64,000 nt of DNA, taken from Jimgerdemannia flammicorona (taxonomy: Eukaryota). The position numbers and the translations under genes are program-made. Position 1 is the first letter of the stretch. Each line of letters begins with the position of its first letter. Shown piece by piece: positions 17,795-58,950 of this stretch. A model generated the notes under the pieces. The model saw only the letters and a list, made by a program, of their open reading frames with translations, was not told where the DNA came from and did no database searches. The stretch lies in the NCBI GenBank assembly GCA_003990765.1, contig RBNJ01000001.1:1-64000 (forward strand). The letters run 5' to 3'.

Positions 17795-18352
17795 TTCATC
17801 ATCACTTTCTTCTGATTCTAGTTCTGGTTCAGATTCAGATTCTGATTTACTTTCTGAGCTGTCACTGGAGGTGGGAGTGCTTGGGTATCCTGAGGATGGT
17901 GTTCTGGACCTTGGACAAAGTGGAATGAGCCTTGGTATTCTTGTAGGAGCTACTTCCAACTCTGCAAGAGATTATGGTAAAGGTTCTATTAGTGAGATTG
18001 ATGGGACTGGTATGGAGTATCTGGCTGTAAGGTCTTGGGTTCATATGATAAGATCTTTTAGTTCTTGTGCAAGTTCTTCAAAATCTCTAGCAGGGCTGTC
18101 TGTATTGTCTGGTTGACCTGATTGAGGATTTTGGGCTGTACTGCCTTCTGGTTCTGGTTGGGATCCTTCTGATACTGAGTAGTTGGTAAGTCTTGATGTG
18201 ATTACTTCTCTTCCTGTCTAAATGCTGGAGATAACTGGTTCTCCTATAGTAGCAGAGATTGGTGTTGTGTCAAATATATCCAGTTTGACTGTAGATTCTT
18301 GTGAGCTAAAAAGTTATGTTGATTTTGAAATCTTCTCAGTTGAGCCTCCAAA

Positions 18353-19668
18353 TGTAACATACCTGGCTCAATAGAGATAAATTACAAGGTTGGGGGTTGA
18401 TGTAGTTTGGCTTGAGCTCCCAATTACTTTATTAAAAGCAATAAAATATTCTTAGTGTTTAGTAGTATAATAGTCAAGATCTGGATACTGTGTGAGCAGT
18501 TTCCTTTTTGAGACAGATTCTTGGGTATAGCAGCAGTTTGTGTGAGCAGTTTCCTTCTTGAGTAGTGGTCAATTTGTGTGTAGCATGAGTGGGTTCCTTA
18601 TTTGAGTTAATTAGAAATGCCACAATTTTGTATAGTGAGGCAATCTCCTAAAGTACACGATTTCTGGCATAATGATCTCTTGTGTAGCATGACAATCTCT
18701 GTGTAGCGTGAGTGGATTTCCTTATGTGGGTCAACTGAGAATACAGCAATCTGATAGATAACTCAATTTGGCAGGTGATTTGGATAAATCAGACAAGGTA
18801 GATAATTTGGATAACTCAGATGAGGTAGATAACTTAATAACTTAGATAACTTGAATACAGATAATTCAAATAATTCAAATTCAGGAGGTTCCTGGCTTTG
18901 TCTGGTAAGTATACCAAAATATAGCAGATTCACTAGGAATACTGACAAATATAGCAGGCTCTCTGAGAACAATAACTTGGGTGATGAGCTTTACTGAGAA
19001 TGGTGAATAACTTGAAAATGTCAGATAATGTAGATTTGGTAGGCTTCTGGCTTTATCTGGCAAGTGAACTAAAATATAGTGGCTTATTCCTTAAGCAGCA
19101 GATTACTCAAAAGGTGGTGAAGTTCTTCACATGAACTTAGATAGCAAATCTTCAGGCTTATCTGACAAGTGAACCAAAAACAAACTCTTCTTTATATTGG
19201 AAAGTGGACCAGAGTGGAAGAGAAGAGAACCAAGCTCATAACTTCTTGGCAGTGGCTTGTTGGCAGGCATATCTCCTAAGTATTGCAATTCAATTTCTTT
19301 AGGATCAAGTGGCTTTTGGCAGACATTTCTCCTAAGTGTACTAGACAATTGACTTTTGCTTTGGTTTGTATTCAACTTTTGGACTGAGGTTTATTCACTC
19401 TTGTCTCTGGGATATTTTATATATTATAGTTGCTATCTGGTTGCTATCTGGCTAACTATAGATTTACTATTTATGTATATTTGAGTGGATGACCACCATC
19501 TGGTAATAGCTACTATCTAGGAGACAGCTACTGTTTACATTATTCCCTTCTTTGGCTATCTGGTTATTTATACATTTTTCACAGTAATGGTTGCTAGTTA
19601 CTATGCTATACTAATGTTCATATTATCTGGTTAGGTTTTGAGATTGCTATGTTTTGTGGTTTGTCACA
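18353..19668 (-). repeat. 5' LTR of Gypsy B
   Basis: Direct repeat of 9494-10811, followed on minus by the PBS. Confidence 0.95.
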
Positions 19669-30820: not shown

Positions 30821-31092
30821 ACTTGGTAGCAACAGATTACTGAGTCAAAAAGATACTAAGAATACACTCCTAAAGTTAGAACAAGACCAATCTTAGACAG
30901 GAGTAACCCCCAGAACCAATTGTGGATCTCCAAACCAGAGCCAGAGAAGCCCTTACCATTAAGACCAAGTGGTATCAGGAAACCACAGATCCAGAGATCC
31001 ACTAGCTTGCAGCCTCTTTCCAGTACCATTCAGGTTACACAACCTTTGAAAGGCACTTTCGACATCGTTTTCAGCAAAAAGAGACTAACAAC

Positions 31093-33117
31093 ATGGCAAC
31101 TGACAGGCAACCTGAGGTGCGTACTGGGCAGGGTGGCCCAAGCACTTTCAACTGGCAGCAGGTAGAGAGGGGTCCAGGCCTGGGGGGAGGTATGAGGGGC
31201 CTGCTAGTGGGTGGACGTGGAAGGGGTGGAGGAGGTGGTGGAGGATCAGGATCTGGGAGGACCAGCTTCGCGGAGATGGTGAAGGGGAGACAGCAGGCGT
31301 CAGGGCTGGAGGGCTGGCTGAGGAAGGGCAAGGAGACCAAAAAGGCGATGGTGCCAGGGGGTGCGGCCCTTGGAAGGGGGGGCAGTGGAGCTGTAGGAGT
31401 AGTGGCTGGGGGGGGTGTGACTGCTGATGGTGTTGGGACTGTTGATCTGGAAAAAAATCCAGATGTGACGGCTGATGGTGAGGCTGAGCGGCTGAGGCTT
31501 AGATGACAAGGGGACTTGGCAGATGGTGTAACGAGTCTGGCAGTGGCCCCATTACTCAAGAAATCGATTTCGGCGTTTGCGGTCACACTGTACTTCCGGG
31601 GCCTGGCAGTGACAGCAAAAATGGTGCTGGGGCTCATCGCTAAGCAGGTGGCGGGTGCAGCATCTGTGAAGTTTTTGAAGGAACTGGAAGGAGTGGAGGT
31701 GGGTTTCGAGGAGGCAGCACCACTGGAGGAGGCACTGAAGGTTGGATTGGTGGTTGGGGAGGTGTGTGTTCCAATGGTACGGTGCCTGAAGTGGGACCCC
31801 AGGGTGGTCCAACTGCTGGTGAAAGGAGTGCCAATGGTGACAGTGATGGAGACAAGGAAGAGAGTTGAGGATTTCATGGCGGAATATGGCGAGGTGGTGG
31901 ATATCGGGTTCAGAGTCTGGGAAGGGACCCTGCTCAGGACTGGTGATGTAGATGTGAGGATTCGGCTGGCTGAGAGAGAAGCCACTGGGAAGGCAAGGGA
32001 TTGGCCTTCGGCGATGGTCTGGGGAGCGATCCTGTATAGGGTGACAAGGGTGAAGGGGAGTGAGGAGGAGGAGGAGGATTTACTGGAAGTGCTAGAAGAG
32101 CTGGAGGGTGCTGTGGAGAGGCGAGCGAAGGCTTGGGAGGCTTTTGAAGAGGCAATGCACTTGGAGGTGGTGGATGGAAAGCGGATTCGAGTGACCAAGG
32201 AGCAGTGGGAAAGGGCACAGAGGCGTAAGAGGCAGAAGGAGTTGCTGGCCAAGCTGGATAGCAGACCACTGGGGGAGACGAGCAAGGTGAAGGGAACTGG
32301 GGGAGCTGAAGCGAGTGTCTGGGCTGGCGAGGGGGAGGGGAAGGACAGGGAGGAGGCGGGGGAAGACAAGAGGAAGGCTGTGAAAGACCTATATGCAGAT
32401 GGTACACTGGAGGTGTGGGAGGAGGACTGGGTGGGCTCCCCTACCCCTACTCCTCTCATCAGGCGAGGCCCGGCTTCCCAGAATAAGGTGGTGGAAGATG
32501 TACTAATGCGAGGGGCCCAGAGGGTGCAATTCAGAGTTCCAGAGGTGGCATATGGGGGACAGGTGGTGGCGGCTGGCGAGGAGGAACTGGTAGATATCCC
32601 GGAAGTATAGGATGAGTCTGCAAGTGCTGGAGCTGACACCACAATGTTGGATGGAGGGAGGCTGGCGACTCTGGGGGGGAAAGAGGTGGGAAACTTGCTT
32701 TGGATGTACTGGATGATGAATAACCTGGCGGCAGAAGAGTTGGGGGAAGTGGACTTGCAAGTGATGAGTAATGAGCATTGGACAGGAATACTGCAGGGGG
32801 ATGGCATAATGAAGGCATTGAAGGCGGAAATTCTTGCAGTGTACCTAGAGGAGGAAGGGTATGAGGTAGATAAGGAGAGGGAGGAGGAGATGGTGGTTGT
32901 TGCTGGCGAAAGGGCTGAATACTGCTGGAACAAGCGACATGAACTATAGCTCTGGCAGGAAGCATGTATCAAATACCAAGAGGAGTTTGAGGAGAAGGCC
33001 AATGGAGAGATGAATGAGCTGCTGGCTGGATTGGAGGCTCAGAGGGCCAAAGAGGAGGAGGTGGCTGCAGAACATAATTTGGACAAGATGCAGGAGGAGA
33101 TGAGCATGGAGCAGTAG
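31093..33117 (+). pseudogene. LINE ORF1 (RGG/Gly-rich, RRM-like, coiled coil)
   Basis: ORFs 31093, 31516 and 32644 share one frame with 3 internal stops; VQLLVKGVP...EYGEVVDI...RTGDVDVRIRL resembles the ORF1 RRM of L1/Tx1 elements. Confidence 0.85.
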
Positions 33118-33150
33118 AGGCTGATTGACAACATCATATATATCCTCAAT

Positions 33151-36100
33151 ATGAACAGTACAACCAACATTTTCTCTTTGAACGTGAATGGGTTAAGGGG
33201 TGCTTCTCATCATAGGAACATTTTTACTTAGATGAAGGGATTGGAGGCCGATCTCTTCCTTTTGCAGGATGTCTGGTGCGAAGATGACTCTGATAGGTTA
33301 GAATGGACAAAGGAATGGAGAGGTGTGGCGATTTGGAAGAGCAAGGTTGGGATTTTGATTAGGAAAGGCAGAGGGGAGATACAGAATGTGCGATGCTAGG
33401 GGGAGAGACTAGTCTGGGGAGAGTGGATTCGGGCGGGCTGGGAGCCAGTTACGGTTGGCTCCTGCTACTGCCCTGCAGTACGGGGTGAGAGAGTAGATTG
33501 GGTGAAAGGCTTACAGGAGAGTAGATTACTTGTGGAGGCTGGGATGGATGTGCTCGGGGGAGATTTCAATATGGTTCAAGATATACTGCTGGATAGAACA
33601 GATGGAGAATGAGGTGCTGAGAGCAGGAGTGGGGGACTGGTGGCATGAGAGGAAGTGGAAAGGCTTAGTGTGCTATTGGATGCTGGAAGAGAGTGCTGGG
33701 GGAGTAGGAGGGTCTATACACATTGGGCAGGGGGTCTGGGGACTAGAATTGACTGGATTTTGATGGCCTGCTGCTGGGGACTAGACGTTTAGAAGTCATT
33801 GGAGGTGGAATGGTGTCCATGGTCGGATTACTGGGGGCTTTTGGGACAGGGGTGCTTTGGGGGAAGTGGGGATGGGCCTGGACATTGGCACCTCAATTCC
33901 TCTTTGTTAGATGACAAGACCTGGTGGGATGAGTAGGCTAAAGACATTCAACTGAGGGTGGAGAGCTGGAGGCAGGAAGGGGCCGCAGTTGGGACTTGGT
34001 GGATGAGGATGAAGAAAATGGCTAGGATTTACTGGAAGGAGGCTGGCAAGGCAGCAGAGAAGCAGCGAAAACAAAGAGTATGCTGGGCCTCTGCTAGATT
34101 GACGAGACTCCTGGAGGAGTGGGCAAGGCTGATGATGTTGGAGGGGGAAGAAGATTGGAGATTAATGAGGGCGAAAATGGAGGTTGGGGAACTTCAATAG
34201 GTGTTGTGGGAGGAGAAAGAGGCAAAGGTACAGGGCTTGGCAGCCCATCTTCGCTGGTAAGATTTGGAGGAAGGAGAAAGGCCTTCCAAGCTTCTTACAA
34301 GGGCCCTTAGGGTGAGGCGGGTCCAGCAATGGTGGGAAGGGATATTGGACTCTGATGGTGTACTGGTGCATAGTGTACAGGATATTCTTGGATCGCTGAA
34401 GGAGAGATGGGGTAGATTGTGGAGTGAGGAAGAGGGTGGGGCAGATGCCACTACAATTGAATGAACGTTGGAGGACTGGCACCCACCACAAGTTGAAGAG
34501 CTAGGGGACCTGGTGAGGCCTGTACAGGAGGATGAGATCCACCAGGTTCTTGCCGCGACATCATCTGGTATGGCACCTGGGGAGGATAGTCTGCCCTGGG
34601 ACTTTTGGAAGTGAATGGTTGAAGTCCCAGGGATGATGGGGGAGATGACAGCATTGTGTGACCTTATTCTACAGACGGGAAGGTGGGTGGGGGAGCAGGA
34701 CCTTGGGCTGGTGATGCTGCTCTATAAAAACAAAGGAAGACAGGAGGATTGGAAGAACTGGCGGCCGATAATGCTGCTAGATATGGACAGAAAGTTGGTA
34801 ACTAAGGTGGTGGTGGCGAGACTACAGAAGGTGGCCCAGCAAGTCATGGGTGTTGAGCAGAGGGGATTTGTGGGTGGTTGGCTCATCCGGGATGGCACTG
34901 CCTGGGTGCATGGCATTATCGAAGGGGCGAGGGCCTGTGGACTGGATGGGCGGCTAGTTTTCTTGGACCAGGAGAAGGCATATGACCGGGTGTGAAGAGT
35001 CTGGCTGGAGAAAGTCTTGGATAGAATGGGGGTACCGCATCAATTCCGATCAACAATGGTCAGCCTACTGGAAGAGAGTAGGGCTATACTCACATGTAAT
35101 GGACATAGAGGGGTGGCATTCCCCTTAGGAAGGGGGGTGCCCCAGGGGGATCCACTGTCCCCCATTTTGTATGCTCTTTCCCTGAAACCACTCATGGACC
35201 GAATTAGGCAGAGGATAGTGGGGCTCTCTGTCTTTGGCATAGGATGGAAGGTTGGGGCCTTTGCTGATGACATGGTGGTGGGTTTGGGTTCGATTGCTGA
35301 TGTTGAGGAGCTCAAGAGGACTGTGGAGTGGTATGAGGAGTATTCTGGAGCTAAGCTGAATTGGCATAAGTGTGAGACAATGGTGCTCAGTAATGGCCTG
35401 GTGGGAGGGGAAGTTATAGGAACAATTGTCCCCACTGGTGAAGCGGTGCAGTACTTAGGTATCTACTTGTCAGTCTATGGGTCAGTTCTGCCCAAGCTTT
35501 GGTGGGAGCAGAGGATTGGAATCTGGGAGAAGGCTCTGCGGAGTTGAGGGGGAAGACATTTTTCTCTGGCAGGGTGGGTCTCGATTTTGAATGTCTACTG
35601 GCTGCCAAAGTTGTGGTACCTGGCATATCATCTGGACTTCCCAGCCTGGGTAGTGAAGAGATTGATGAAGGTGGCAAAGGGATGGATTTGGGCTGGCAGG
35701 CAGAGTCAGATTAGTTGGGAGACCTTGTCCCTACCAGTGGCAAGAGGTGGGCTTGGGCTGGTTGACTTCCCAAAACGGTTACACTGCTTGAGAGCATGGT
35801 GGCTGAAGAGGGCGGTGGAGTTGAGAGGAGGTGGATGGGTTCCTCTGTTACAGAAGTTATAGGAGAGGCGGGCATCGCCAAGGGGCTCAACTGGTGATCT
35901 CCTCTCCTTGGTTGGACTTCAGCATACTGCCCAACTATGATATAAAGGATTTTGGTGGGGTATTGCAGAAGGAGTGTACTGCATTAGTATTCATTAGCAG
36001 GGGAATGAAGGTGAGGAGGATTGGGACCCGGCGATGTGGAGATGGGACCGTATACTGCTGGGTGGTGCTCCTTTAGTTGAGTTTGACATTAGTGATGGAA

Positions 36101-36807
36101 TGGAATGCCAAAGGAGACCAGGCCAGGATCTGTAGCCTAGCGGTTGGCAAGGAGTTGGAATTGGCGGAGAGTGGAACTAGCATGGTGTTTGGACCTGGAG
36201 TGCTGCAGTGAGAGCATGGCTGCCACCAAAGTACTGGGTGGTCTGGTGGCGTTTGCTGTGGAGGAATATTATGCTCAATTTTCGCTCAGGGCACCTTATT
36301 GCAGGGGGCTACTTCGACTATGAGGAGTGCCATAATGTAGGGCAGGAGGGGGGTTACGTACAGATGCCAGAACATTGGCTAGGAGAGTGTGAGGTATTGG
36401 GGGATTTTTGGCAGACAATTGAGGATCGATTAGGGGTATGGGGTAGGAGTGATGAAGTATGGGGGCGATGGAAGGACTTGAGGGATAGATTGGTAGGGGG
36501 GATAGGGAAGGAGTGGCTTACTTTAGGTTGGGCTTTGGCTATTTGGGTGGGGCTGGCCAGTCATTGGCTATTTGTTTTTGAGGATGGGAGGAGGCAGAGC
36601 TTGGGGGACCGGCTGCTGCGATGGCATAGGCTTATGGAAGACACCTTAACAGGCTGGTGGCTGGGTTGGGGGATGCGGGGTGGTCGGAGGTGCCACTTGG
36701 TGGAGAAAATCTGTGGGCAAAGTGGGGGGAGAGTGGGGGTAGTTGGTGGAAGAGTGATTTTCATTCGTGAGGAAGTAGGGAGGGGCCCCCCTGTGGGGAT
36801 TGGATAG
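33151..36807 (+). pseudogene. LINE ORF2 (APE endonuclease, RT, C-terminal Cys/His remnant)
   Basis: FSLNVNGLRG, GGDFN, WKNWRPIMLL, LDQEKAYDRV, GVPQGDPLSP, AFADD, YLGI, GGLGL, EHWLGEC. Confidence 0.93.
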
Positions 36808-36900
36808 TGGGTTGGAATGATGTATATTTATTCATAGACTGGTAATAAAGGTGGAGTCCAAGTGACTATAAAAAAAAAAAAAAAGAGATCCACTAGCTTG

Positions 36901-38580
36901 TAATTGATCAGACTTACAAGGATCTATACTAGGCCTTTAGGACTTACTACTCAGGACTTAGGAATATAGTCAGCTGCTGTAGGTTCTATGAACTTCTCTG
37001 TAGACATATTGGAACCACTAGGACCCCAGAATCTACTGCTTCAGCTACCCAGAATTTTTTAGATTATATCTCACCCTCTGCTGTAAGAGAAGTAGCTACT
37101 GTGTAGATTATCTCTGATAGATATCATCAAGACCTCTCTCTACTACAGGCTAGTTGTATAATATACCTCTGCCATAACTAGGTATGAGAATAAGCAAGCA
37201 GACCACCCATCTCCTATTGCTGAACAAGAAGCAGGCCCATCTATCTAGCCAGAAACTGATATTCTCTTTGAAGGATCTAGTCAATATGAGGATGTACTAT
37301 CTCATCAGGGAAGGGAGTCAGATGAAGACCCTATAGGTTATCAGTCTGATGATAGCCAACTAGGAACAGCAGGCCTAGGAATTTACCAAGGAATCACAGG
37401 TCAAGAAGATCAGACCCTAGAACCAACTCAGTCACCTATATAGAGATTTGGTTTATCCTCTCTCACAGGACTCTTTAATCTGATATTTAGAAATCAAGTA
37501 ACCCCAAGTCATACAGCACTACAACCCCATCAGGCAGAACAATCTTCAGGAGAATCTACCGCTACAGAACTACAACCAATAGTCAATACAATAGTAGATA
37601 CCAACATTGCAGCACTGATTACCCAGCTAGTCATACTAGCAGAGATAGTAGGACAGATTGCTGAACAGAACAAGTCAACTAAGACCTTACAAATCCCAAT
37701 ATTTAGTGGAAAAAACAGTAATATTGAAATCTTCATCAATGCAGTTAATACAGATTATTGAGCTAATCAATAGAATAACAACTGAATGCTTATAGGAATG
37801 CTTACTAATAACCAGAATAATACCCTTCAACAGCTGTTTGCCACATCAGCAGCACAAGTAGAAACAGTAGCCACATTCTTCACTGGAACTACAGCTGAAT
37901 TCTGAAATATCTTAGAATAATACTCAGTAATCTGAGATAACTGCCCTCAAGTCAATGGACAAGTATCTGCCAACAATAGATTAGATTGGGATGACTATAA
38001 AGCAGGCCCAGGACTCAAGGCTCTGCTACTGACCAAATTCTGAAATACAGCCTATATATAAGAAACTTGGAACAAACTATCCCAGATGAAGTTCTACAAG
38101 AATGGTGAGAAGGATCTAGAGACCTTTGCCACTAGAATGGATGCCTATCTCAAAACTGTTGGACTTACCTATCAGGAAACCAATTTGACCATCAATAGTA
38201 CCAGAGCCAACCATCTCTTTGCAGTCCTACCAGACTGGCTCACCTAGAAGATTAAGGAATAAGGTCTTCCCCAAGGATATCTCCATTATTTATAGTGCTT
38301 TGCCCAAGTACAAAGAAGAGTCCATAAAATTCTTGCTGTATAGGCTCTATGAAATCAAGAATACAAGAAAGATAACCAAGATAGGAGAAATCCCACCAGA
38401 AGGAATGACCAAAGAAATGACTAAAGAAATGATCAAAAGAACCAGCAAAACCCCAGAGGACCAAGACCTCCTACCAAGAATGAAAAGAAGCAGCTCCATA
38501 AAAAAGGATCATACTTTATCTGCAAGAAAGCAGAATACATCTCATTCAAATGCTCTGAGAAGAGAAACAGATCAGATGAA
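36901..38580 (+). pseudogene. gag: Gypsy D gag (after the LINE insertion)
   Basis: LQIPIFSGKNSNIEIFINAVNTDY..LTNNQNNTLQQLFAT is similar to E gag (LSLPTFNG...LTNNQDHTLKQLFAT); decayed knuckle YFICKKAEYISFKC near 38510-38555. Confidence 0.8.
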
Positions 38581-45000: not shown

Positions 45001-46447
45001 TACACAGGTCAGCTCAGGTTGTGATATACTACTAAGAAGTGCCAAGCCCAACAGACTGAGGAACTCAAACAGGACTACCCTTCTTGTAAAATATAGGAAG
45101 AAACTGACTTTGAGAAGACTGACAGTAATTGGGACAACAATGAGGATGAAGAACTCAATATCATCAAAAAGGAGAACAGTTGTATCAAGTTCACAGATTA
45201 AGTTCACAGACAGAATGTCAATATTTTGCTTGATAGTGGTGTTACTGGAAACTATATCAGCACTAAGACTGCTAAGAGGATTGGAGCCCAGAGCAGACCA
45301 GCTACTGAGAAAAGAAGTGTTACCTTTAGTGATGGTAAGACTGCACCACTGACTAAGATCTGCAAAGATCTCTTGCTCAAGATTGACAAATATCAAGAGA
45401 AGATGGACTTAAGTATTGTAGATCTCCCAGGATAAGATATTATCCTAAGAAAAGCCTGGTTGACCCAGCACAACCCAGACATTAACTGGAGAACCAATGA
45501 GGTTAATCTGACCTATGAAGACAGAAAGATCACCCTGATACCCCAGAAAGATACCAACCATCAAGGAATCGAAATCATCTCTGCTATTCAAATGAAGAGA
45601 CTCTCTCAAAAAAGGAAAACATCTACTTTATCTGCACTATACAAGAAGTCACTGAAGCTACAAGTAGCCCAATCCCAACAGAAGCTCAAGAACTGTTCAA
45701 GGAATTCCAAGATATATTTCAAGACCCTCAAGGACTTTTACCAAAGCACCAAATCCAATATAAAATTGACCTTATTCTAGGATCTGAACCCCTATACAAG
45801 AGTATCTATCAACTGGCCCAATCTGAACTCAAGACCCTCAAGGATGAGTTGATCAAGCTACTGACCTAAGGATATATTAAAATCAGCCACTCTCCATTTG
45901 GAGCCTCCATTCTATTTGTCAAGAAGAAAGATAGCTCTCTGTGAATGTGTATTGACTACAGAGCCCTCAACAAGATTACTATCCAGAACTAGTATGCCTT
46001 GTTGAGGATTGATGAGTTGCTATACCAAATCTTCAAGGCCAAGACCTTTTCTCTGCTAGACTTGTGAAATAGCTACCATCAGATTCTCATTGATGAGAAG
46101 GATATTGAAAAGACAGCTTTCTGAACATGGTTTGGACACTACCAGTTCCAAGTCATGCCTTTTGGTTTAACCAATATACTAGCAACATTCCAGTATCTGA
46201 TGAATGACATCTTTGGACCACTCCTCAACATCTGTATCCTTGTGTATATTGATAATATACTAATTTATAGTGAAACAGTAGAGTTATACTATACCCATCT
46301 CAGACAGACACTAACTCTTCTGTGAGAACACTAGCTCTATGCTAAGATGAGCAAATACAAGTTCTATCAAGACCAGATTGAGTACCTAGGACATATTATC
46401 TCTGCTGAAGGTATCAATGTAGACTCCTGAAAGGTATCAGCCCTTAA

Positions 46448-47580
46448 TGGACAACACAGGCAATACAAGCAACATGGGCAATATGGGCAACATGGGCAAC
46501 ATGGGCAGGCAAGATGGGCAAGACAGGCAAGATGAGCAAGACAGGCAAGACAAGCAAGACAGGCAAGATGGGCAAGATAGTAAGATAGGCAACATGGGCA
46601 AGATGGGCAGACAGCAAGACAGGTAATATGGGCAAAATGAGCAAAATGGACAAAATGGGCAACACAGGCAACACAGGCAACATGGGCAACATGGGCAACA
46701 TGGGCAACATGGGTAATACAGGAAACATAGGTAACACAGGCAATATGGGTAAGTAAGACAGGCAAGATGGGCAAGACAGCAAGATGACAAGACAGGCGAT
46801 ATGGGCAAGATGGGTAAGACAGGTAAGACAGGCAAGATGGCAAGATAGCAAGATGGGTGAGATGGGCAAGATAGGCAGACAGCAAGACAGGTGACATGGG
46901 CAAAATGGGAAAAATGGGCAAAATGGGCAAAATGGGCAATATGGGCAATATGACAACATGGGTATACAATATGGGCAATACAGGCAACATGGGCAATATA
47001 GGCAATATGGGCAACATGGGCAGGCAACATGGGCAACACAGACAACATAGGCAACATGAGCAACATAGGCAACATGGGCAATATGGACAACATGGGAAAC
47101 ACAGGCAATACAGATAGGCAAGATGGGCAAGACAGGTAAGACAGGCAAAATGGTAAGATGGGCAACATAGGCAAGACAGGTAGACAGCAAGATAGGCGAT
47201 ATGGGTAAGACAGGCAAAATAGGCAAAACAGGCAATATGGGCAATACAGGTAATACAGGCAACATGGGCAACATGGGCAGGCAAGATAGGTAAGATGGGC
47301 AAGATAGACAAGATGGGCAAGATGAGCAAGATGGCAAGATAGCAATATGGGCAACATAGGTGGGCAAGACAGATAGACAGCAAGATAGATGACATGGGCA
47401 AGACAGGCAAAACAGGCAAAACAGGCAACATGGGCAATACAGGTAATACAGGCAACATGGGCAACATGGGCAGGCAAGATAGGTAAGATGGGCAAGATAG
47501 ACAAGATGGGCAAGATGAGCAAGATGGCAAGATAGCAATATGAGCAACATGGGTAGACAAGACAGGCTAAATGGGTAAGA
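46448..47580 (+). repeat. 9-bp minisatellite (GGGCAAGAT/GGGCAACAT/AGGCAAGAC) with a ~190-bp higher-order duplication
   Basis: Seen directly; occasional 8- and 13-nt units. Confidence 0.95.
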
Positions 47581-47893: not shown

Positions 47894-48979
47894 TATCAGT
47901 CCTTAAGGATATTTCTATCCCTACCACTCTCAAGCTACTTCAGTGTTTTCTGGATATTGTCAGTTACTACCAAAGATTTATCCAAGGATACTATGCTATT
48001 GCAGTCCCACTGACTAGCCTGACCTACAAAGGGTTAAAACATCAAGACTGAATAGACCCCCAAATATATCCAGACTATAGACTATCTCAAGAGACTCCTT
48101 ACCAAGACCCCAGTGCTAATTGCACCTAATTCTACTATGCCATTCACTCTGACCACAGATGCTTCTGATATTGCCATTAGGGTAGTACTCAGCCAAGAAG
48201 ACTGCCCAGTGGCCTACCTTTCCCAAAAGCTCAAGCCAGCTAAGACCCAGTATACTACTCATGAGAAGGAACTTCTGGTCATTATCACTACACTCCAAGA
48301 ATATGTAAGAGGGTTGCTTTTTAGGGTAACCATTATGTAGTTCTGGAAGGGTTTTCTGGAAGTTCTGGATGTTCTGGAAGACCGCTTTCTTATGGTCAAG
48401 ATCAATTTCATATGGAGTATATTCTCTATGCTTATTGATTTCAAGTTTGGGTTGACGTCTCAACCAAAGTCCTTTTTGGACTAGTTCTGGATATTCAGGA
48501 TTTTCCATATTTCAGGAAGTTCAAGAAACTAAGACCAGCTTAGTTGAATTGGCATATCGCTGCAGACAATACCCAATTAGGAAATTTCATGACAGGGTTA
48601 GAAGTGGGATCTAACAGGGAGCAGATTTACTTAAGAGTATTTTGGGGGTTATTAAATAGGTTTATTCGCTATTTATGATATTGCTATACTAGGAGTAGTT
48701 GTGTGAAGGGATATTATGGGGAAGTGTTCAGGAATGTTCTTGTGTATTTTTTGTCTGAGATTCTGAGGTCTGGGGGAGGGGGTATTTATACTAGTGAGGG
48801 GCTATCTGGACTATGCTAGATATAGATGTAGCATTAAGTACCTTGCTGAGTCGGAATGCAGTCACATAGTACAAGTGTGATCTGACATGTCAAGAGATCA
48901 TCTGACTGCTGAGTCAGTTCATAGTCATGTCATACAAGGCTAATCTAACTATACTATGTCTGCTAGGCTATTTATAGAT

Positions 48980-49441
48980 TTAGGCACTATCTGGGTAGTC
49001 TTCAATAATATCACCATTGATTGCATTATCTCTGATAAAGTAGTCATCTAGGAAGAGTGGTTCGCGGATTACTTCTCCTTGTTTGCTGAGGTAATAATAC
49101 ATTGGAACTTCGTCACCATCCCATAGAATAGCATTGTCTGTCTCATATGCTGGATAAGGTGTTGGTGGACAAAGGAGGAGTACATCATCTTCACTTTCAT
49201 TGGATTCACTATCTGCATACCTTCTGTAGGTTACAGCACTATGAGTCACAGGGTTGTAGTAAGCTGGTAGCTGTGGTTCATGTTGCTCATACTCAGGTGG
49301 TAGAGTGGTTGGTTCAATCTTGAGGGTTGTCTGGAGATATAGGTTGTGTTCTCTGATCTCTTCATTGTAGTTGAAGTAATCAGGGGTAAATACAGGTTGG
49401 TATTCATACCAGTGGTCATTGTCCTAATAAGTCTTATATAT
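48980..49441 (-). pseudogene. E LTR ORF-B, 3' LTR copy (stop and start mutated)
   Basis: Copy of 57561-58022. Confidence 0.6.
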
Positions 49442-49453
49442 GGTTATAAATTG

Positions 49454-50079
49454 TTGTAAATTCATCAGCAAGGTTGGTAGTGTAATTAGTGTTGGCAGAG
49501 ATCCTTAGCTTAGGGTCATATTGGTGTCAGAGGGATCATTGTCTTCTGCTTCATCTTTATCGAACTGGATTATATCATAAACATCCTTCATAGCATATCT
49601 AACTTGGGACATTTGCAGGATATAGTCATTGGGGTGTGGGAAGGTTCTGTCTGTAGTTTTAATGTACTCGAGATACTTGTGGTTGATTTCTTGTATCATA
49701 TATCATCGATTTGGCCATAGGATAGGGTAGCAACCATTTTGCTGGTAGTAACTTGGAGTCGAGGAATAAAGGTACTGTACTCATAGAAGAGTTCTTGATA
49801 TTTGTGGGCAATGAGCTTCTGGTATTGAGACATCTGAGTAATGTCTGTATCATGGTGGTGTTTGATCATATCTTCCAGGAGGCAGCCAATCTGGTAGTAG
49901 CTTGAGATTTGTCCAATTCGGTGGACCTTGCTAAGCATGTTCAGAGTATTTCATCAGACTTCCATAAAGTAGAGGGGTGCTAGGCTATGGATATTCATGA
50001 GGGGCAGAGGGGGTGTGGCTCAGTTGACAATGGCATTCCAAATGTCAGCATGGATATGAGTATAGATCTCAGTGGTCAT
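49454..50079 (-). pseudogene. E LTR ORF-A (ORF3 family), 3' LTR copy
   Basis: ORFs 49696-49938 and 49505-49699 are joined across a 2-nt insertion; SSYYQIGCLL...LIAHKYQELF...IPRLQVTTSKMVATL. Confidence 0.7.
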
Positions 50080-50829
50080 ATTTGTGTGTTTAAAAGTTGT
50101 AGTTGTTGTTTGTTTTGGTTCTCTGATTCGACGCATCTCAGTACTCAGTATATATATATTTGGTCCTAATTGGTAAGATTCTATTTGTGTGAATCTTGTA
50201 TTCTGTGACTTTATATTGACTCAGCTTTGTATACTGTAACTTCAGTTTGACTCAGCTTTGTGATCGAGCAGGTGATTTCCAGATTTGTTCAGAGGTCGCA
50301 TGTGATTTCAGTGACTTGTTCAGAGGGTGACATGTAATTTCGGTGGCTTAGAGGTTGTGTGCTTACAACTCTCCCCTTCTTAGCTTTCGACATCCTTGTT
50401 GGGGTATTCTAATTTTGTTCTAGTGTTGTTATACTGTTTGGGAGGTTAAAAGTCCAGTAAAGTCCATTTTTTCAGAAAGTGGCATGCTTATAGTACAGTT
50501 GTCTAATGTGTTGGATTCATATGTTAAAGAGTCATGTGTTCAATACCATGTACTGGAAGTGATTCTGACATCATTCACTGCTGGAGAATTTCCTCTACAA
50601 AATCTTCTTAAATATCTATGCCTCGTTTCTCACCAGTGGTATGGGGAGAATAGGCTGGCTTTCAGTTTTGCTACTTTTTGCAGAGGGTCAGTATTCTTGT
50701 CTTATTTCACTGAGTTCTTGATTTTTGATAATTATAGTGTTCGTAAGGATAATATATAGTATATATGGATAGGTGTGGAGTATTTGGTTTTAGTTGTTCA
50801 AGGAATCATATTTCTGAACTAGGTTGGTA

Positions 50830-53800
50830 GCATTCTGGAGGTTGGTCTTGGGTTCCTAGGTTACATCATGAATTGGATAACTTTTCCATTTAATAAGGTA
50901 CTCAGGGTGGTTCTTGTGATTACATTTGTTGAGGATTTGTTCAACTTCATACTCTTCTTGGCCATTAATAATGACAGGTGCAGGTGGTTTTATAGTTCAG
51001 TTAGGGAATAGTTTATCATCATTCTCATTATATTGCTTGAGATGTTGGATATTAAAGACTGGGTGAATCTTAATGGTGTCTGGTAGTGCCAATTTGTAGG
51101 AGGTTGGGGAAACTTATGCAATAACTTCAAATGGTCCAATGAACTTGCTGTTCAGCTTTGTGGATGGTCTGTGCTTGAGGTTGTCAACTCGGTATCCTCT
51201 GATGTCCAGTAGAACTTTTTCTCCAATATCAAAGATTTCTTCTCAGTGGTGTTGGTTAACATACTGTGACTGTTGTTCTTGAGCTCGTGATAAATTCTCA
51301 ATGACAATCTGGCTTAGATTGTACATTCAGAGTAAGAATTCTTCAACAGCTTTGACTGTAGAGGGTTCTTCAGTGGTTCAGATAAGTGTCAAAGGGGTGT
51401 TTGGGTTTTGTCCAATATTGGCAAAGAATGGGGTCATTCCGAGAGAGGCTTGCTTGCTATTATTATAGGCAAACTCGACTGTGGTCAGGTGTTCATACCA
51501 ATCATCTTATCTGTAGGAAACATAGTTCCTTAGCATTTATTCTAGAGTTCGGTTCATTCTTTCGGTTTGACCATCAGTTTCTGGGTGAAAGACTGTGGAT
51601 AGTACAAGTTTTGTTCCAAGGTATACATAGAGGGCTTTCCAAAAATGGCTGATGAATTTCAGGTCTTGGTCACTAACAATGATCTTAGGAAGACCATGAT
51701 AGCAAAAGATATTGTCAAATAAGAGTGTGGCTATGTCTAGTACTGTTGCAGTAGTAGTAGTAGGCACAAAGTGGGCTTGTTTGCTGAGGTAATCCACAAA
51801 GACAACAATTGCATCTTTCCTATTCTTGGTTTGGGGTAGTTGTATAATGAAGTCCATAGAGATTTGTTCCCAATTCGCAGATAGTACTGGGATAGGGTGA
51901 AGTATGCCAGGTTTTGCTGTATTGAGGACTTGTTTCATTGGCAGGCATCACAGGAAGTGATATAGGTTTTGAGCTTATCTGCCATGTGGGGCCAATAGAA
52001 GTTTCGGAAGATAACTTTATAACATTTATTGAATCCTAAATGTCCAGCTATAGGGGCATTATGACATTTGAATAGGATAGTCCTTCGGAGGTCTTGGTTG
52101 TTTGGGACATACAGTCTGTCTTTGTAGTAGATAGTGTTATCCTTCAGTTGATATTGGTGATACTGTATATGCTTGTCAGTATCATCACTGTTCAGGATTT
52201 CTCGAAGTGCTTGAGCTTCCTTATCATCAGCACATGCTATGATAATTTGTTCCATGATGGAGTTTGTAACCAAGGTGAGAGTTTGGATAACTTCTTCGAT
52301 TGGTAGTCTGGAGATTGCATTGGCAATAATATTTTCCTTGCCAGAGTGGTACTGGATTTCATAGTCAAAATTGTTGAGGACTTTCATCCATCTGGCTTGC
52401 TTTTGAGAAAGGGTAGCCTGTGTCTTGATATTGACTAATGATTTGTGGTCAGTCAATATGGTAAAGTGTACTTCTTCTAGGTATGGTCGCTATTTGATCA
52501 GGGTGTCTACGATGGCTAACATTTCCTTTTCATGAGTTGCATAGTTGATTTCGGCATCATTGAACTTGCAGGAGTGATAGGCCACAGGGTGTCCTTCTTG
52601 CATAAGTACTGCTCCAAGGGCTAGATCAGAGGCATCAGTAGTGACTTCATATGATAGGGCAGGATTTGCTGCTTGAAGTACTGGAGTGGTTATCAAGGCA
52701 TCCTTTAGTGCTTGAAAGGCAGTATCTTGCTTGAGTCTCCAATTTACAAGATTGTTGAAGTCTTTCTCTTGTTTTGTGGTCCAGGGTTGTTCTTGTTTCT
52801 TGCTGTGCTTGGTCATTTGGGTGAGGACAGTAGTGATTTTAGCAAAGTTGGCAACAAATTACCTGTAATAGTTTGCTAATCCCAGAAATGACTGCAGGTC
52901 TTTCAGTTTCTTGGGTCTGGGCCAATCTTTGATTGCAGAGATTTTGCTGGAGTCTACTTTGATTCCATTTGGAGTGACAATATGTCCAAGAAATTAAATT
53001 TCTTTCAGGAGAAATTCGCACTTGCTGAGTTTTGCAAAGAGTCGGTTTTCTCGAAGTTTCAGTAGTACTAGTTCAAGGTATTTGAGATGTTCCTCTAGGG
53101 TTTTGCTGAAGACTAGGATGTTGTCAATGTAGACAACAATGAATTTGTCCAGGTATGGGTGCAGGATAGTATTCATCAGAGTCTGGAAGGTTGCAGGAGC
53201 ATTAGTTAAGCCAAAGGGCATAACTAGGAACTTGAAGTGTCTATCGAGTTTGGAAGACTGTCTTGTAGATGTCTTCTTCTTTTATGGCAATTTGCCAGTA
53301 ACTATTTCACAGGTCAAAGGAGCTTATGAATTGCAGGTTGGTAAGTCTATTGAATATTTTATCGATTCTAGGTAGTGGGCAATAGTTCTTGATGGTCTGT
53401 TCATTGAGATCATGGTAGTTAATACACATTTGCAGGTCTCCTCCTTTCTTGACAACAAATAGGACTGGTGCACCATAAGGTGATACACTGGGTCTGATGA
53501 ATCTTTGTTCTAGGAGTTCATCAATTTCTTTCTTGAGTGCATTGATTTCTCTTGGAGACATGTGGTAGATTGACTTGAAGGCTGGTTTGGTATCTGGGAT
53601 GGTCTTGATAGTATGGTCTACTGCTTGTTTAGGAGGTAGGCCTTTTGGGAGTTTCTTTGGGAATATGTCTTGAAATTTCTGGAGTAGTGGTCTAACATGG
53701 CTGTCAACTTTGGAAAAATCCTCTTCAGAGTTCTCAGGTTCTCCTTTGGATAGATGGATGGAGATGGTGAAGAGAGGGCATTTCTTGGCCAATTTCTTAA

Positions 53801-54240
53801 GTTGTAGCTTGTTGATGTGGGTGATCTTTGGTCCAGGGTCACTAGAATTAAGTGGGTCCTTTTCATCTTGTAGTTTGAAGTTGTGGCATCCTTTTTTGAT
53901 GGTCAGAGAATGGTTTACCCAATTGATCATGGGGTTCTCTTATTTTAACCATGGAGTCTCCAGGATGATTTCATTATCAGGAAGTGGTATGATTTGGAGG
54001 GTGACATATTCTCAGTAGTTGCCAATTCGGAAAGGTAGATTGCAGACTTCTTTGCTAATAATATGTGAGGTTTCATCAGCTATAGTAACTGCTTGAGTTT
54101 GCTGTACTGGAGAGATGAAGACCTTGAGTCTGTTGGCTGTCTCTTCATTGATAAAGTTGTCTGAGGCACCACTGTCTATCATAATCTTGACAGGTGCTTG
54201 ATTGATAAAAGCCTTAAGTATGAGCAGTTTGTCTGATCCA
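50830..54240 (-). pseudogene. pol: Gypsy E protease - RT - RNase H - integrase - chromodomain
   Basis: [70 protein letters not shown]; chromodomain EYEVEQIL..YLIKWKSYP..T*EP. Confidence 0.95.
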
Positions 54241-54449
54241 ATGGTGGTGATTTCTATTATAGGAGCTTTCCTTCTATTGGTTCTTCTTTGTGCCAGTTCA
54301 TTGACACAAGAGAAGCAATCATCAATCATTTAGGAAGAGTACATTCTAATACTATGAGGGCATCGGCCACTTGGTATATATCCATCTTCGATCTTCTTGT
54401 AGAATTGTTCTTTTTTGTTCATGGTAGGTTGGATTGGGGCCTTGTTTGA

Positions 54450-54860
54450 TGAGCCAAATCCTTTAGATCCTTGGATGTTAGATAGTAGTTCAGGGACTTC
54501 CTTGACTATCAGGGTTGACTCAATTTTTTCGAATAGAATCTGGGCAATGCAGAAATCTATAGAGATCTTGAAGGGTGTCCAACTGTGGTTTCAAATGAGG
54601 ACAATGATTTTGCCTGTATAATCTTCGTTGATAACTCCTCCTTCTACTGAGAGTCCTTTCAATGCTAGACTGCTGCAACAGCATATTCTTCTAACATGTC
54701 CTTCAGAGATTTGGATACTGATTCCTGTGTAAACTTGTTTGACTTCTTGGTTGGAAACTGTAGCTTCTTCAACTGCATACAGGTCATATCTAGCTGCTTT
54801 TTGACTTCCTTTGGTTGGGGCCTTAGCAGTTTGTCTTAACTTGATAAAGTCTAGTGTTCT
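54450..54860 (-). pseudogene. dut: Gypsy E dUTPase (upstream of protease)
   Basis: Manual translation APTKGSQKAARYDLY, SSLALKGLSVEGGVINEDYTGKI, IAQIL, GSKGFGSS. Confidence 0.92.
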
Positions 54861-54899
54861 GGTGATCAGGTTGTTGAGGTGGTGTAGAGTGGTAATAGT

Positions 54900-55918
54900 T
54901 GCTCATATTGCTGTTCAGGGTTTTTGGTTAGGGCAGGCACTGGCCATGTATCCTGTCTTTTGGCAATAGAAGTATGCTCCACTTCTTCAAAGTTCATTCC
55001 TTTCGCCTTCAGTGAGTTTTTTGAAGGTGCTTGGCTGGGTGGTTCATGATTTCTAGGTGTCCAAGAGGTGGATGTGGAGGGAGCTCGGGATGCTTCATGC
55101 TTAGGTTCTTCTTTCTTGGTCCAAGTCTTTTCTTTGTTGTTGAATTGTCTTCGGGGCAGAATTGGTCCAGCTGTTAGGATTCACTTGACCATAGTCTTGA
55201 TTCTTACCAGGCACCATTGTTGGTGATCACAACCAACTGGGCAGCCTTGTTCTTGGATTTTTCTAGTAAGCCATTCAGGCAGGGCATCAAATAAATAGTC
55301 TACTCTTGTACCATTTCATGCTTCATCATTGGCAATATATCTTAGACCAACAGTGTTCAGGAGTGACTCGAGTTTTGTACAGAAGGTTTCGAATTCTTCT
55401 TTGCTATGTATATCAAATTTGAGGTTGTGGAGTTTTACTCGAGATTCAGCAATCATGGTTTCACTGCGGTATTGAGCAATCATGAGTTGTTTGAGTCCAG
55501 GGGCTGCAGGATGGACTCCGTATCCTGGGGTATTGTTTGCTGCATTCTGAGCAACTACTGCAGGTCAGGTATCCCATGTAAGGGGTTTTTCAGGAAGAGT
55601 TTGTCACCATTCTTCAGCAGGTCCTTGGAAGAATGTAACAACTCAGTGGACATAGGCTATAGTGGTAGCAAAGAGTTGTTTCAGAGTGTGGTCTTGATTG
55701 TTTGTCAGAATGCAGTCAGCAACTTGCTCATTAGTCCATTGATTGGCTTCGAAGTTGGTGTCAACTATACTAATGAAGCTTTGGACTTCTTGTGCAGTAC
55801 CATTGAAGGTAGGTAGGCTCAGATTTTTGATAGGTCGGGTCTGTTCTGCTAAGGCAGTAATGGTTGCTGCCATTATGGCTACCTGGGCTATAAGGTCTAG
55901 AATCTGTTGGTTTGCCAT
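54900..55918 (-). pseudogene. gag: Gypsy E gag with decayed CCHC knuckle
   Basis: LSLPTFNGTAQEVQSFI; YFYCQKTGYMASAC near 54930-54975. Confidence 0.8.
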
Positions 55919-57560
55919 GTTGTTTACTGAAGGCAGTTGGACTGCTGATACATAGTAGTGTTACTGGTACTACTTGAGGTACTGGTGCAGAGTGTGATGG
56001 GGTTCTTTGGGTCTGTATAAGTTACTGGAGTAGTAGTTGTAGATCTGGAGTAAGGGCTTGATAGATAGCTGTTTGTTGCTGTGTAGGTGTATTCTGTCCT
56101 AATGGAGGTACTTCTCCTTCGGTGGTATATCTGGGATCGAATTCACTGAGATACTCCTCCTCCTCTTCAGTTTGGTCCCTGTGTAATTGGATTTGCTCGG
56201 CATCGAAGTAGATGAAATCAGTTGTATATCTGATTTCAGATGGACTTAATTCAAAGTTAAGTTCAGGTTCAGTATTGGTTTCAGATTCAGATAGTGCTAT
56301 AGCAGGGCCTACTTCAGGTTCGAGGTCAGGTAGTTGATGAAGAGTTTCTCTTACTTCTTCTTTAAGGATATGGTGGGCCTTGCTGTTTTGGAATTGGTAG
56401 TATAATGTGGTCTTGGTCCTGGTGCAGTGAAAGTCGGTAGAGTTGAGCCACTTGGCTATAGAGGCTTGGGCTTCATGAGGAACTAAGGCTAGAAAGACTG
56501 CTGCTGGTTGTCCTAGGTTACTCAGGTTTGTGGAGCTGATAAAACTCTTGTTGAGAAGAGTAAAGAAGGCTTCAATAAGACTTTCTTTGTCTTGACTTAC
56601 TGGGTGTAGTGCAAGGAGTTCAGTGAATAGGGTTTTATCTATTTGCTGGTTTAACTGGAATACTTCTTTCTTTGAATAAAGTTTGTCCCACTTGTTGCAG
56701 GTGTGGAGGTCAAATTGTCCTTGTATGTCAGATTCAATTCTCTCCAGATTGTCAGATGGTTCAAGATAAATTCCAGTTTAGAGGTTGGGCTCTATACCAA
56801 TTTATAGGAATTCTCAGAAGGGTTTGTAGCAGGGTGAGGAAGTATCTTGAAGCGGAATTGGATTGTAAACCACTACTACCAAGTGTAAGAGAGTTGCTTT
56901 TTAGAGTAACTGTTATGTAGTTCTGGAAGGGTTTTCTGAAAGTTCTGGATATTCTGGAAGACCGTTTTCTTATGGTCAAGATCAATTTCATATGGAGTAC
57001 ATCCTCTATGCTTATTGATTTCAAGTTCGGGTTAATGTCTCAACTAAAGTCCTTTTTCAGACTAGTTCTGGATGTTCAGGATTTTCCATATTTCAGGAAG
57101 TTCAAGAAACTAAGACCAGCTTAGTTGAATTGGTGTATCACTGCAGACAATATCCAATTAGGAAATTTCATGACGGGGTTAGGAGTGGGATCTAACAGGG
57201 AGCAGATTTACTTAAGAGTGTTTTGGGGGTTATTAAATAGGTTTATTCGCTATTTATGATATTGCTATACTAGGAGTAGTTGTGTGAAGGGATATTGTGG
57301 GAAAGTGTTCAGAAATGTTCTTGTATGTTTTTTGTCTGAGATTCTGAGATCTGGGGGAGGGGGTATTTATACTAGTGAGGGGCTATCTGGACTATGCTAG
57401 ATATGGATGTAGCACTAAGTGCCTTGCTGAGTCAGAATGCAATCACATAGTACAAGTGTGATCTGATATATCAAGAGATCATCTGACTGCTGAGTCAGTT
57501 TACAGTCATATCATACAAGGCTAATCTAACTATACTATGTCTGCTAGGCTATTTATAGGT

Positions 57561-58022
57561 TTAGGCACTGTCTGGGTAGTCTTCGATGACATCACTATCG
57601 ATTGCATTATCTCTGATGAAGTAGTCATCTAGGAAGAGTGGTTCATGGATTACTTCTCCTTGTTCGCTGAGGTAATAATACATTGGAACTTCATCACCAT
57701 CCCACAGAATAGCATTGTCTGTCTCATATGCTGGATAAGGTATTGGTGGGCGAAGGAGGGGTACATTATCTTCACTTTCATCAGATTCACTATCTGCATA
57801 CCTTCTGTAGATTACAGCACTATGAGTCATGGGGTTGTAGTAAGCTGGTGGCTGTGGTTCATGTCGCTCATACTTAGGTAGTGGAGTAGTTGGTTCAATC
57901 TCGAGAGTTGTCTGGAGATATAGATTGTGTTCTCCGGTCTCTTCATTGTAGTTGAAGTAATTGGGAGTGAATGTGGGTTGGTATTCATACCAGTGGTCAT
58001 TGTCCCAATAAGTCTCATACAT
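57561..58022 (-). CDS. E LTR ORF-B: intact 153-aa Tyr/Asp/Glu/Pro-rich protein of unknown function
   Basis: Open ATG-TAA frame in element sense, starting 12 nt after the ORF-A stop. Confidence 0.55.
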   Translation of the reverse strand: MYETYWDNDHWYEYQPTFTPNYFNYNEETGEHNLYLQTTLEIEPTTPLPKYERHEPQPPAYYNPMTHSAVIYRRYADSESDESEDNVPLLRPPIPYPAYETDNAILWDGDEVPMYYYLSEQGEVIHEPLFLDDYFIRDNAIDSDVIEDYPDSA

Positions 58023-58034
58023 GGTTATGAATTG

Positions 58035-58658
58035 TTATAAGTTCATCAGCAAGGTTGGTGGTATAATTAGTGTTGGCAGAGATCCTTGGCTTGGGGTCAT
58101 ATTGGTGTCAGAGGGATCATTGTCTTCTGCTTCATCTTCATCAAACTAGATTATATTGTAAACATCCTTTATAGTGTATCTGACTTGGAGTATTTGCAGG
58201 ATGTGGTCATCGAGGTACAGGAAGGTTCTGTCTGTAGTTTCAATGTACTCGAGATACTTGTAGTTGATTTCTTGTATCATATCATCGATTTGGCCATAGA
58301 ATAGGGTAGCAACCATTTTGCTGGTAGTAACTCAGAGTCGAGAAATAAAGGTGCTATACTTGTAGAAGAGTTCTCAGTGTTTGTGGGCAATGAGCTTCTG
58401 GTGTTGAGACATCTGGGTAATGTCTGTATCATGGTGGTATTCGATCATATCTTCCAGGAGGCAGCTGATCTGGTAGTAGCTTGAGATTTGTCCGATTTGG
58501 TGGGCCTTGCTAAGCATGTTCAGAGCATTCCATCAGACTTCCATGAAGTAGAGGGGTGCTAGGCTATGGATATTCATGAGGGGCAGAGGGGGTGTGGCTT
58601 AGTTGATAATGGCATTCCAAATGTCAGCACAGATACAGGTATAGATCTCGGTGGTCAT
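58035..58658 (-). pseudogene. E LTR ORF-A (ORF3 family, ~207 aa), 5' LTR copy
   Basis: Single frame; two TGA stops correspond to CAA in the other LTR copy, implying ancestral CGA (Arg). Confidence 0.75.
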
Positions 58659-58950
58659 GTTTGTATGTTTGGAAGTTGTAGTTGTTGTTTGTTTTGGTTC
58701 TCTGATTCAATGCATCTCGGTGCTCAGTATATATACATTTGGTCCTGATTGGTAAGATTCCATTTGTGTGAATCTTGTGTTCTGTGACTTTGTATTGACT
58801 CAGCTTTGTGCACTGTGACTTCAGTTTATCTCAGCTTCATGATTGAGCAGGTGATTTCCAGATTTGTTCAGAGCTCACATGTGATTTCAGTGGCTTGTTC
58901 AGAGGGTGACATGTAATTTCAGTGGCTTAGAGGTTGTGTGCTTACAAATA

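Follow-up and report, generated by a model that had tools for sequence, protein, structure and literature searches.

A single accessory gene proposed within the U3 region of a decayed, dUTPase-bearing Ty3/Gypsy retrotransposon

Genes that lie inside the U3 region of a long terminal repeat (LTR) are a textbook feature of a few retroviruses, and are outside the standard picture of LTR retrotransposons. Does a retroelement of Jimgerdemannia flammicorona carry such a gene in its U3 and, if so, is it one gene or two, and is it served by a promoter of its own? These questions arise from a 64,000-nucleotide stretch of DNA, positions 1 to 64,000 of contig RBNJ01000001.1 (assembly GCA_003990765.1), which we call the window. 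The original prediction described in it, on the minus strand, a 2-kb LTR carrying a cassette of two genes, ORF-A (open reading frame A; 58658-58035) and ORF-B (58022-57561), separated by a 12-nt gap and preceded by a TATA box within U3. Our analysis leads to a different layout: the U3 of this element, a dead copy of a Ty3/Gypsy retrotransposon with a dUTPase, likely holds one accessory gene of 365 codons, both versions of which are now pseudogenes.

A frame in the U3 region of both LTRs

The two LTRs, at 56884-58946 (5' LTR) and 48304-50367 (3' LTR), with TG...CA ends, lie where the original prediction had placed them; direct-repeat search and self-BLAST give them an identity of 91.8% across 2,066 columns, and tblastn within the window bears out the claim that the cassette recurs in the second LTR. 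In the 5' LTR, the U3 ORF as we delimit it from its relatives and its codon score (see below) occupies 57561-58658 on the minus strand, with 365 codons and a stop, and takes in ORF-A, the gap and ORF-B. It lies between the LTR start at 58946 and the main TATA at 57371, ending ~190 nt upstream of the latter (TATAAATA), the U3/R border being placed from motifs; the original prediction is supported in placing real coding sequence in U3, all of it ahead of the main TATA. The 3' LTR copy (48980-50079, minus strand) has a 2-bp (AT) insertion and five stops.

Neither copy is open. Six internal stops interrupt the 5' LTR copy, at codons 20, 42, 95, 109, 171 and 208; those of the 3' LTR copy are at codons 20, 42, 43, 191 and 218, and the AT insertion, near 49698-49701, shifts its frame at codon 127. 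Codon 20 is TAA in the 5' LTR and TGA in the 3' LTR, and codon 42 is TGA in both. At the remaining sites a stop in one LTR faces a sense codon in the other: in the order 5' LTR/3' LTR, codon 43 is TGG/TGA, codons 95 and 109 are both TGA/CAA, codon 171 is TAG/CAG, codon 191 is CAA/TAA, codon 208 (the end of ORF-A) is TAA/CAA and codon 218 is TGG/TAG. The complementary TGA and CAA that had been noticed between the copies are those of codons 95 and 109. The frame-breaking stops were made by transitions, and the earlier suggestion that the stops in this copy are products of decay is supported. What had been taken for the open frame of ORF-A includes five internal stops and its terminal TAA in the 5' LTR copy, and ORF-B is, as described, open for 153 codons there. 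Because the 12-nt gap is in frame (it amounts to four codons, not a spacer), and because the TAA that precedes it is CAA in the other LTR, ORF-A, gap and ORF-B make up one frame.

Two natural relatives describe this frame in uninterrupted form. A phmmer search with ORF-B against 1.84 billion representative proteins returned a sole match, P0002 (247 aa; E 4.5e-59; 65% identity over ORF-B), which forms a cluster by itself and originates from a 998-nt ENA contig. Across the full alignment 151 of 245 columns are identical (61%), with two in-frame 2-aa indels and no frameshift. The N-terminus of P0002, MVSTLTYGQIDDM, aligns at codon 115 (M115), which is inside the supposed ORF-A; from there P0002 replaces the two C-terminal stops of the window, 171 and 208, by Gln, reads through the gap (LQQFITTYETYW) and shares the C-terminus of the window frame. 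Where ORF-B was supposed to start with Met, P0002 has Thr and the 3' LTR has ATA. The other relative, P0004 (128 aa; E 1.4e-60; 80% identity), is a JGI 'hypothetical protein' found among shorter proteins by a read-through query with X at the stops. It begins with MTTEIY as the window frame does, and it has Arg at all four N-terminal stops (20, 42, 95 and 109); furthermore, at nine of its ten Arg the window copy has Cys, Gln, His or a stop, which is the pattern expected of CGN codon decay. The overlap between P0004 and P0002 is 14 residues long (MVATLSYGQIDDMI versus MVSTLTYGQIDDMV), and the two jointly span codons 1-365; around codon 127 they both have DDM(V/I), in which the AT insertion is absent. 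The two-gene cassette of the original prediction does not survive this comparison: P0002 and P0004 depict one continuous frame.

Other searches for relatives gave little. Among proteins of similar length, ORF-B had no match, nor did the read-through query P0003, despite 618 word-sharing candidates; viral contigs scanned with P0002 contained no match either. A metagenome locus that matched ORF-B (L001) was rejected as spurious: its contig is high-GC and bacterial-looking, and has only an ESDESEDN pattern in common with ORF-B. The assignment of ORF-A to an 'ORF3 family' found no support, in that tblastn of ORF-A, ORF-B and a 251-aa leader ORF of the same element against the window (E<=1) matched the two LTR copies only. 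We also observed that a 255-nt core of the ORF (57835-58089) has an 83% match in a 9.6-kb contig of a sequencing run, X14, that we guess to be RNA (depth 369); the other 9.3 kb of that contig are unlike the window, and it may represent a diverged family member that keeps the ORF core.

Another line of evidence is intrinsic to the frame. We scored codon usage with a table of 962 codons from the element's own protease (PR), reverse transcriptase (RT), RNase H, integrase (IN) and dUTPase fragments, stop codons being left unscored. The U3 ORF reaches +84.8 bits in its own frame, versus -71.3 and -12.4 bits in the other two; the best frames of LTR positions 0-288 and 1386-2063 give 3.4 and -0.4 bits, respectively. 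None of 2000 dinucleotide shuffles attained +84.8 bits (mean -2.6, standard deviation 9.3, maximum 36.1), and the base composition by codon position matches that of pol (G at position 1: 0.249 versus 0.248). When taken in 300-nt windows, the U3 ORF scores 22.8-31.9 bits, except for 900-1200 (2.4 bits); elsewhere in the element, most gag-pol windows give 23-36 bits and non-coding ones about -2 to 13 bits. Control windows elsewhere in the 64 kb reached +84.8 bits in 10 of 258 cases, with starts at 15330-16790, 24090-26280 and 37595-37960; the first two of these groups are in or adjoining PR/dUTPase matches of other elements. Simulated neutral drift to 62% amino-acid identity left the frame stop-free in 3/1000 and 11/1000 runs, and drift to 70% identity did so in 21/1000 and 57/1000. 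The LTR of a neighbouring element (9494-10811 / 18353-19668) has no coding signal. These sequence comparisons lead us to conclude that the U3 frame is, or was, probably protein-coding; we are slightly less sure of its single-gene layout.

The decay that the stops record is visible throughout the LTRs. Among 2,062 aligned columns there are 167 differences between the two, of which 165 are transitions; CpG is depleted (19 observed versus 79 expected), and TpG exceeds its expectation (129 versus 75). On the sense strand, C/T differences number 108 and G/A differences 57. The decay involves more than CpG loss alone, as many of the differences fall in contexts other than CpG, CpA/TpA among them. 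We hypothesize that the ancestral gene was CpG-rich and Arg-rich, and that C-to-T and G-to-A decay would have reduced it to a pseudogene in both LTRs. That the gene is present in both is because reverse transcription copies U3 to both ends. The genomic RNA would have one copy only, a 3'-terminal ORF flanked by the polypurine tract and R. As for the claim that each insertion carries two copies, the ORF is in both LTRs as anything in U3 would be, by the ordinary course of reverse transcription.

As to the product, P0002 is strongly acidic (pI 4.05), with 46 Asp+Glu, 23 Tyr and 24 Pro in its 247 residues; P0004 is near neutral (pI 6.28), with 10 Arg. Low-confidence AlphaFold2 (AF2) models suggest helices at about residues 1-170 and little order beyond. 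The protein would probably comprise a helical N-terminal part and a disordered, acidic, Tyr/Pro-rich C-terminal part. Pfam has no family for P0004 or P0002 at E<=10, searches of PDB by sequence and profile gave a best E of 0.23, a Foldseek search of PDB with the weak AF2 model gave a best E of 0.9, and PHROGs had no match to the U3 protein. The Atlas had no usable match for P0001; its matches for P0004 were heterogeneous (0.93, with 155 common features, below the guide value of 170). A PPAY (P-P-x-Y) motif in the C-terminal part was set aside, as it is found in the window copy only and is not conserved. We can only guess that the U3 protein acts in trans as a helper of the element, for example as a regulator or an adaptor.

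Promoter-like motifs and the weighing of alternatives

The original prediction gave the cassette its own TATA inside U3. The positions of the box (TATATATA, 58735-58728) and of the ATG at 58658 are confirmed, the box lying 70-77 nt upstream of the ATG on the minus strand, where it may be a distal, gene-specific TATA box; in family contigs its ATATATA core is kept, with another base at 58735. Upstream of the box are two tandem 31-nt repeats (58775-58836, minus strand), each with an inverted TGACTCAGC. In the 5' LTR this 9-mer is intact at 58796-58804 and decayed in the second repeat unit; in the 3' LTR both are intact (50217-50225 and 50248-50256). A further pair of tandem repeats, with ~32-nt spacing, is near the 5' edge of U3 (58877-58928, minus strand).

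The main promoter is similarly built. The GTATAAATACCCC that had been described there is confirmed, with its TATA at 57371-57364, as is the AATAAA at 57247-57242, the putative poly(A) signal at the end of R. The putative main TATA, TATAAATA, is identical in both LTRs, and the U3/R border would be ~30 nt downstream of it. Two forward TGACTCAGC sites (57497-57489 and 57434-57426; minus strand) precede it by 56-126 nt. Exact matches to the TGACTCAGC 9-mer number six in the 64 kb, all within these two LTRs, versus 0.72 expected, and none of 100 shuffles gave six. The inverted pair is 60-100 nt upstream of TATATATA and ~1.4 kb from the main TATA. The distal module, with its repeats and its TATA-like box, mirrors the layout of the main promoter; the box itself has stood up to re-examination, and its role as a promoter is putative. 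Also present is an in-frame ATG at 58715, 19 codons upstream of MTTEIY, which is open in the 3' LTR copy (MRRIREPKQ...) and closed in the 5' LTR copy (ATG CAT TGA); since it is only 13 nt past the TATATATA box, it would precede the start of TATA-driven transcription. In two runs that we guess to be RNA, the top contig depth is at 57048-57424 and 48377-48753 (putative R/U5), with little over the ORF, in a measure of depth that cannot rank the parts of the LTR.

Could the open frame be a non-coding by-product of an A-rich, G-poor strand? A stop-to-stop frame of 157 codons was attained in 15 of 2000 dinucleotide shuffles of the LTR, and antisense frame 0 is also stop-poor, with eight stops. However, the largest stop-free frame in any of those shuffles is 195 codons, against 365 here, none matches the codon score, two relatives are open, and other parts of the LTR share the strand bias yet give no codon signal; we regard this explanation as highly improbable. 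It is also very unlikely, in our view, that a captured fragment of a host gene sits in U3 as a passenger with no role for the element: long LTRs can contain captured sequence, but we found no host-type homologue (P0002, the sole match among the 1.84 billion representatives, has no Pfam family), the codon usage equals that of pol, and the frame is kept at 61-65% identity. The layout with separate ORF-A and ORF-B and a 12-nt spacer would be favored by the open ORF-B of the 5' LTR, which begins with an ATG; bearing in mind that the spacer is in frame, that the ORF-A stop is CAA in the 3' LTR and Gln in P0002, and that the ATG of ORF-B is ATA in the 3' LTR and Thr in P0002, it is scarcely credible. 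A different division into two genes is offered by the 3' LTR, in which the AT insertion at 49696-49699 splits the single frame: ORFs of 127 and 239 codons would overlap by ATGA (49699-49696), which might allow termination-reinitiation. At 49690-49709 the upstream frame indeed reads GAT GAT ATA TGA and the downstream one ATG ATA CAA, P0004 ends at residue 128, and contigs of soil metagenome X1 mostly retain the extra AT, which is omitted in 12 of 242 depth units; this last proportion is not the family majority, because AT-less contigs would map to the 5' LTR instead. On the other hand, the DDM(V/I) of both P0002 and P0004 is the uninterrupted form, and AT slippage in GATATATG is a trivial mutation, which leaves a split at codon 127 unlikely.

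The matter of expression divides the readings differently. The gene could be real and have no promoter of its own: in that case only the 3' LTR copy would be expressed, from a spliced subgenomic or full-length RNA that starts at the main 5' LTR promoter, as is sag of mouse mammary tumor virus (MMTV), and the distal repeats would be U3 enhancers. This is the usual route for retroviral 3' accessory genes, and repeated enhancers are common in U3; it is less readily reconciled with repeats that are so far from the main TATA, yet so near the TATA-like box ahead of the ATG, in a module that copies the layout of the main one. We consider this a serious, if doubtful, possibility. In the reading that we favor, the gene would instead have its own promoter at the 5' edge of U3, comprising the two inverted TGACTCAGC in the 31-nt repeats, TATATATA and an A/C-rich leader of ~40-70 nt, and a transcript that ends at the LTR's own AATAAA would yield an mRNA of ~1.45 kb within one LTR. 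By extension, each LTR would be a complete gene (activating repeat, TATA, leader, 365-codon ORF and poly(A) signal), with two units per insertion and one per solo LTR, making a trans-acting protein that might, for instance, activate the look-alike main promoter or counter host silencing; two base pairs could switch the gene between the fused form and the form with two ORFs overlapped by ATGA. We advance this extension speculatively and would sooner doubt than believe it. If true, a strategy of 'complex retroviruses', a U3 gene plus a second promoter, would operate in a fungal-type Metaviridae element.

Returning to the single 365-codon gene that we favor, several observations weigh against it or against a promoter of its own. 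No single relative covers all 365 codons: P0002 begins at M115 and P0004 ends at 128, which is the site of the 3' LTR frameshift, where either a stop or the end of a contig could account for its terminus. The relatives number only two, both at the protein level, and both come from gene-call databases, which record only open frames and are biased to open copies. The patchiness of their identity to the window frame is not significant, its variance being reached in 1165 of 5000 permutations for P0002 and in 4172 of 5000 for P0004. The stops at codons 20 and 42 are common to both LTRs, and may reflect either parallel decay of hypermutable CGA or an ORF that was already broken at insertion; in the latter case, the gene was not needed in cis. 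The U3 protein has no family match, and its AF2 models are poor, with pLDDT (predicted local distance difference test) values of 33.7 for a three-row alignment and 51.3 for P0004 alone. The promoter reading is drawn from motifs, and TGASTCA may be an AP-1/Gcn4-type site.

Comparison with known accessory genes

MMTV sag, which encodes the superantigen of a betaretrovirus, is located in the U3 of the LTR. The ORF described here resembles it in lying whole inside U3, in being doubled in the DNA form and in being 3'-terminal in the RNA. Unlike sag, to which it is unrelated in sequence (Pfam gave no family at E<=10; PDB best E 0.23), it belongs not to a virus of a mammal but to a Metaviridae-type retrotransposon of a soil eukaryote, one without env, and has a separate promoter-like module before it. 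Foamy-virus tas/bet are transcribed from an internal promoter, the second one of the virus, and the C-terminal part of Tas is acidic and serves in activation; HIV/SIV nef is a 3' accessory gene that overlaps U3. With these the U3 ORF shares the character of a 3' accessory gene that reaches into U3, and a foamy-type internal promoter would be a further likeness only if the distal module is active. However, tas/bet and nef merely overlap U3, starting upstream of it, and have no homology to the present ORF, for which a role as a transactivator is a guess. We propose that a Gypsy element of fungal type carries a U3 gene akin to sag, a layout for which a few retroviruses are otherwise the main precedent.

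Another comparison is with the additional ORFs of LTR retrotransposons. ORF0 occurs in Retrosat2/RIRE3/RIRE8 of grasses, and that of Retrosat2 is described as lying in the internal region upstream of gag-pol (PMC3485330); a figure legend refers to an 'add. ORF' in fungal chromoviruses (PMC2864245); and bdelloid elements have an ORF3 (PMC5408684). Like the U3 ORF, all are lineage-restricted, fast-evolving orphan ORFs of long-LTR Gypsy-type elements. In contrast to the internal ORF0 of Retrosat2, the whole of the present ORF is within the LTR; the better analogue of ORF0 would be the 251-aa leader ORF of the same element (56777-56022). Gypsy elements with a dUTPase are described in Postia, Phanerochaete and Tuber, with the dUTPase at varying places of pol, and the passages on these fungal elements mention no LTR gene (PMC2864245). 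In searches of open-access full texts, we found no case of an LTR retrotransposon with a gene inside its LTR.

Should young copies have both a working gene and a working promoter for it, LTRs and solo LTRs would be protein-coding units that transposable-element annotation masks by default. The element would in that case also have a trans-acting factor with a findable target (the element's promoter, host silencing or particle assembly), and would open the origin of accessory genes in retroelements to study in a non-viral system. For the window itself, the annotation is corrected to one decayed 365-codon pseudogene per LTR.

The element and its surroundings

The retrotransposon that contains the U3 ORF is a full-length Ty3/Gypsy element of 10,643 bp on the minus strand (48304-58946), as established by its LTR pair, its Pfam domain order and an empty site. 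Its 5' LTR (56884-58946) has 2,063 bp and its 3' LTR (48304-50367) 2,064 bp, both with TGTAAG...CTTACA ends, and a target-site duplication, TATT, is at 58947-58950 and 48300-48303. A contig of coded organism A links 48299 directly to 58947, omitting 10,647 bp (10,643 + 4). A TGG-initiated, primer-binding-site-like TGGTAGTAGTGG is 2 nt past the 5' LTR (56870-56881), and a polypurine tract, GAAAGCTAAGAAGGGGAGAG, is directly upstream of the 3' LTR (50369-50388). Pfam matches on the minus strand run from dUTPase (54902-54591) through PR, an aspartic protease (54329-54012), RT (53281-52994) and RNase H (52858-52490) to the Zn and core domains of IN (52489-51537), PR-RT-RNase H-IN being the pol order of Ty3/Gypsy elements (Metaviridae). 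Four frames between the primer-binding site and the dUTPase, where gag would be, have no Pfam family, and codon usage of that region is coding-like; downstream of IN, where a chromovirus would have its chromodomain, two 53-aa fragments have no Pfam match, in a region that is decayed. All internal frames are broken, and this is an old, decayed, dead copy. The direct-repeat search and self-BLAST found no third LTR copy or solo LTR in the window; the LTR family is very abundant in one soil metagenome run.

The 251-aa open frame of this element (56022-56777, minus strand), which lies between the primer-binding site and the gag region, has no Pfam family; its codon usage is pol-like (+69.8 bits, versus -26.5 and -14.5 in the other frames). 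A leader ORF comparable to ORF0 of Retrosat2 is one possible identity, and the N-terminus of Gag another.

The window as a whole is a nest of retroelements, and neither Rfam nor tRNA scans gave a match in it. Three of its Gypsy elements have a dUTPase by Pfam, at 14335-14907 (minus strand), 25316-26188 (plus strand) and 54591-54902 (minus strand), and the place of this domain differs: it is between PR and RT in the element at 9494-19668, and upstream of PR in that at 48304-58946. Since this trait has been described in fungi (PMC2864245), the host is probably a fungus; sequence of the window recurs in soil metagenomes and in two coded organisms. Beside the element at 48304-58946 is a 1.1-kb array (46433-47557) with a 9-nt periodicity and 29 registered copies at 9-nt spacing, in which all three minus-strand frames are open from stop to stop (388-399 aa); the one frame that was tested has no Pfam match. 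A 5.9-kb inverted pair, 603-6455 and 31013-36882, is 80% identical and has an extreme GC skew, from -0.49 to +0.47; it includes a 655-aa frame without a Pfam family (31071-33038, minus strand) and an RT fragment (34996-35547).

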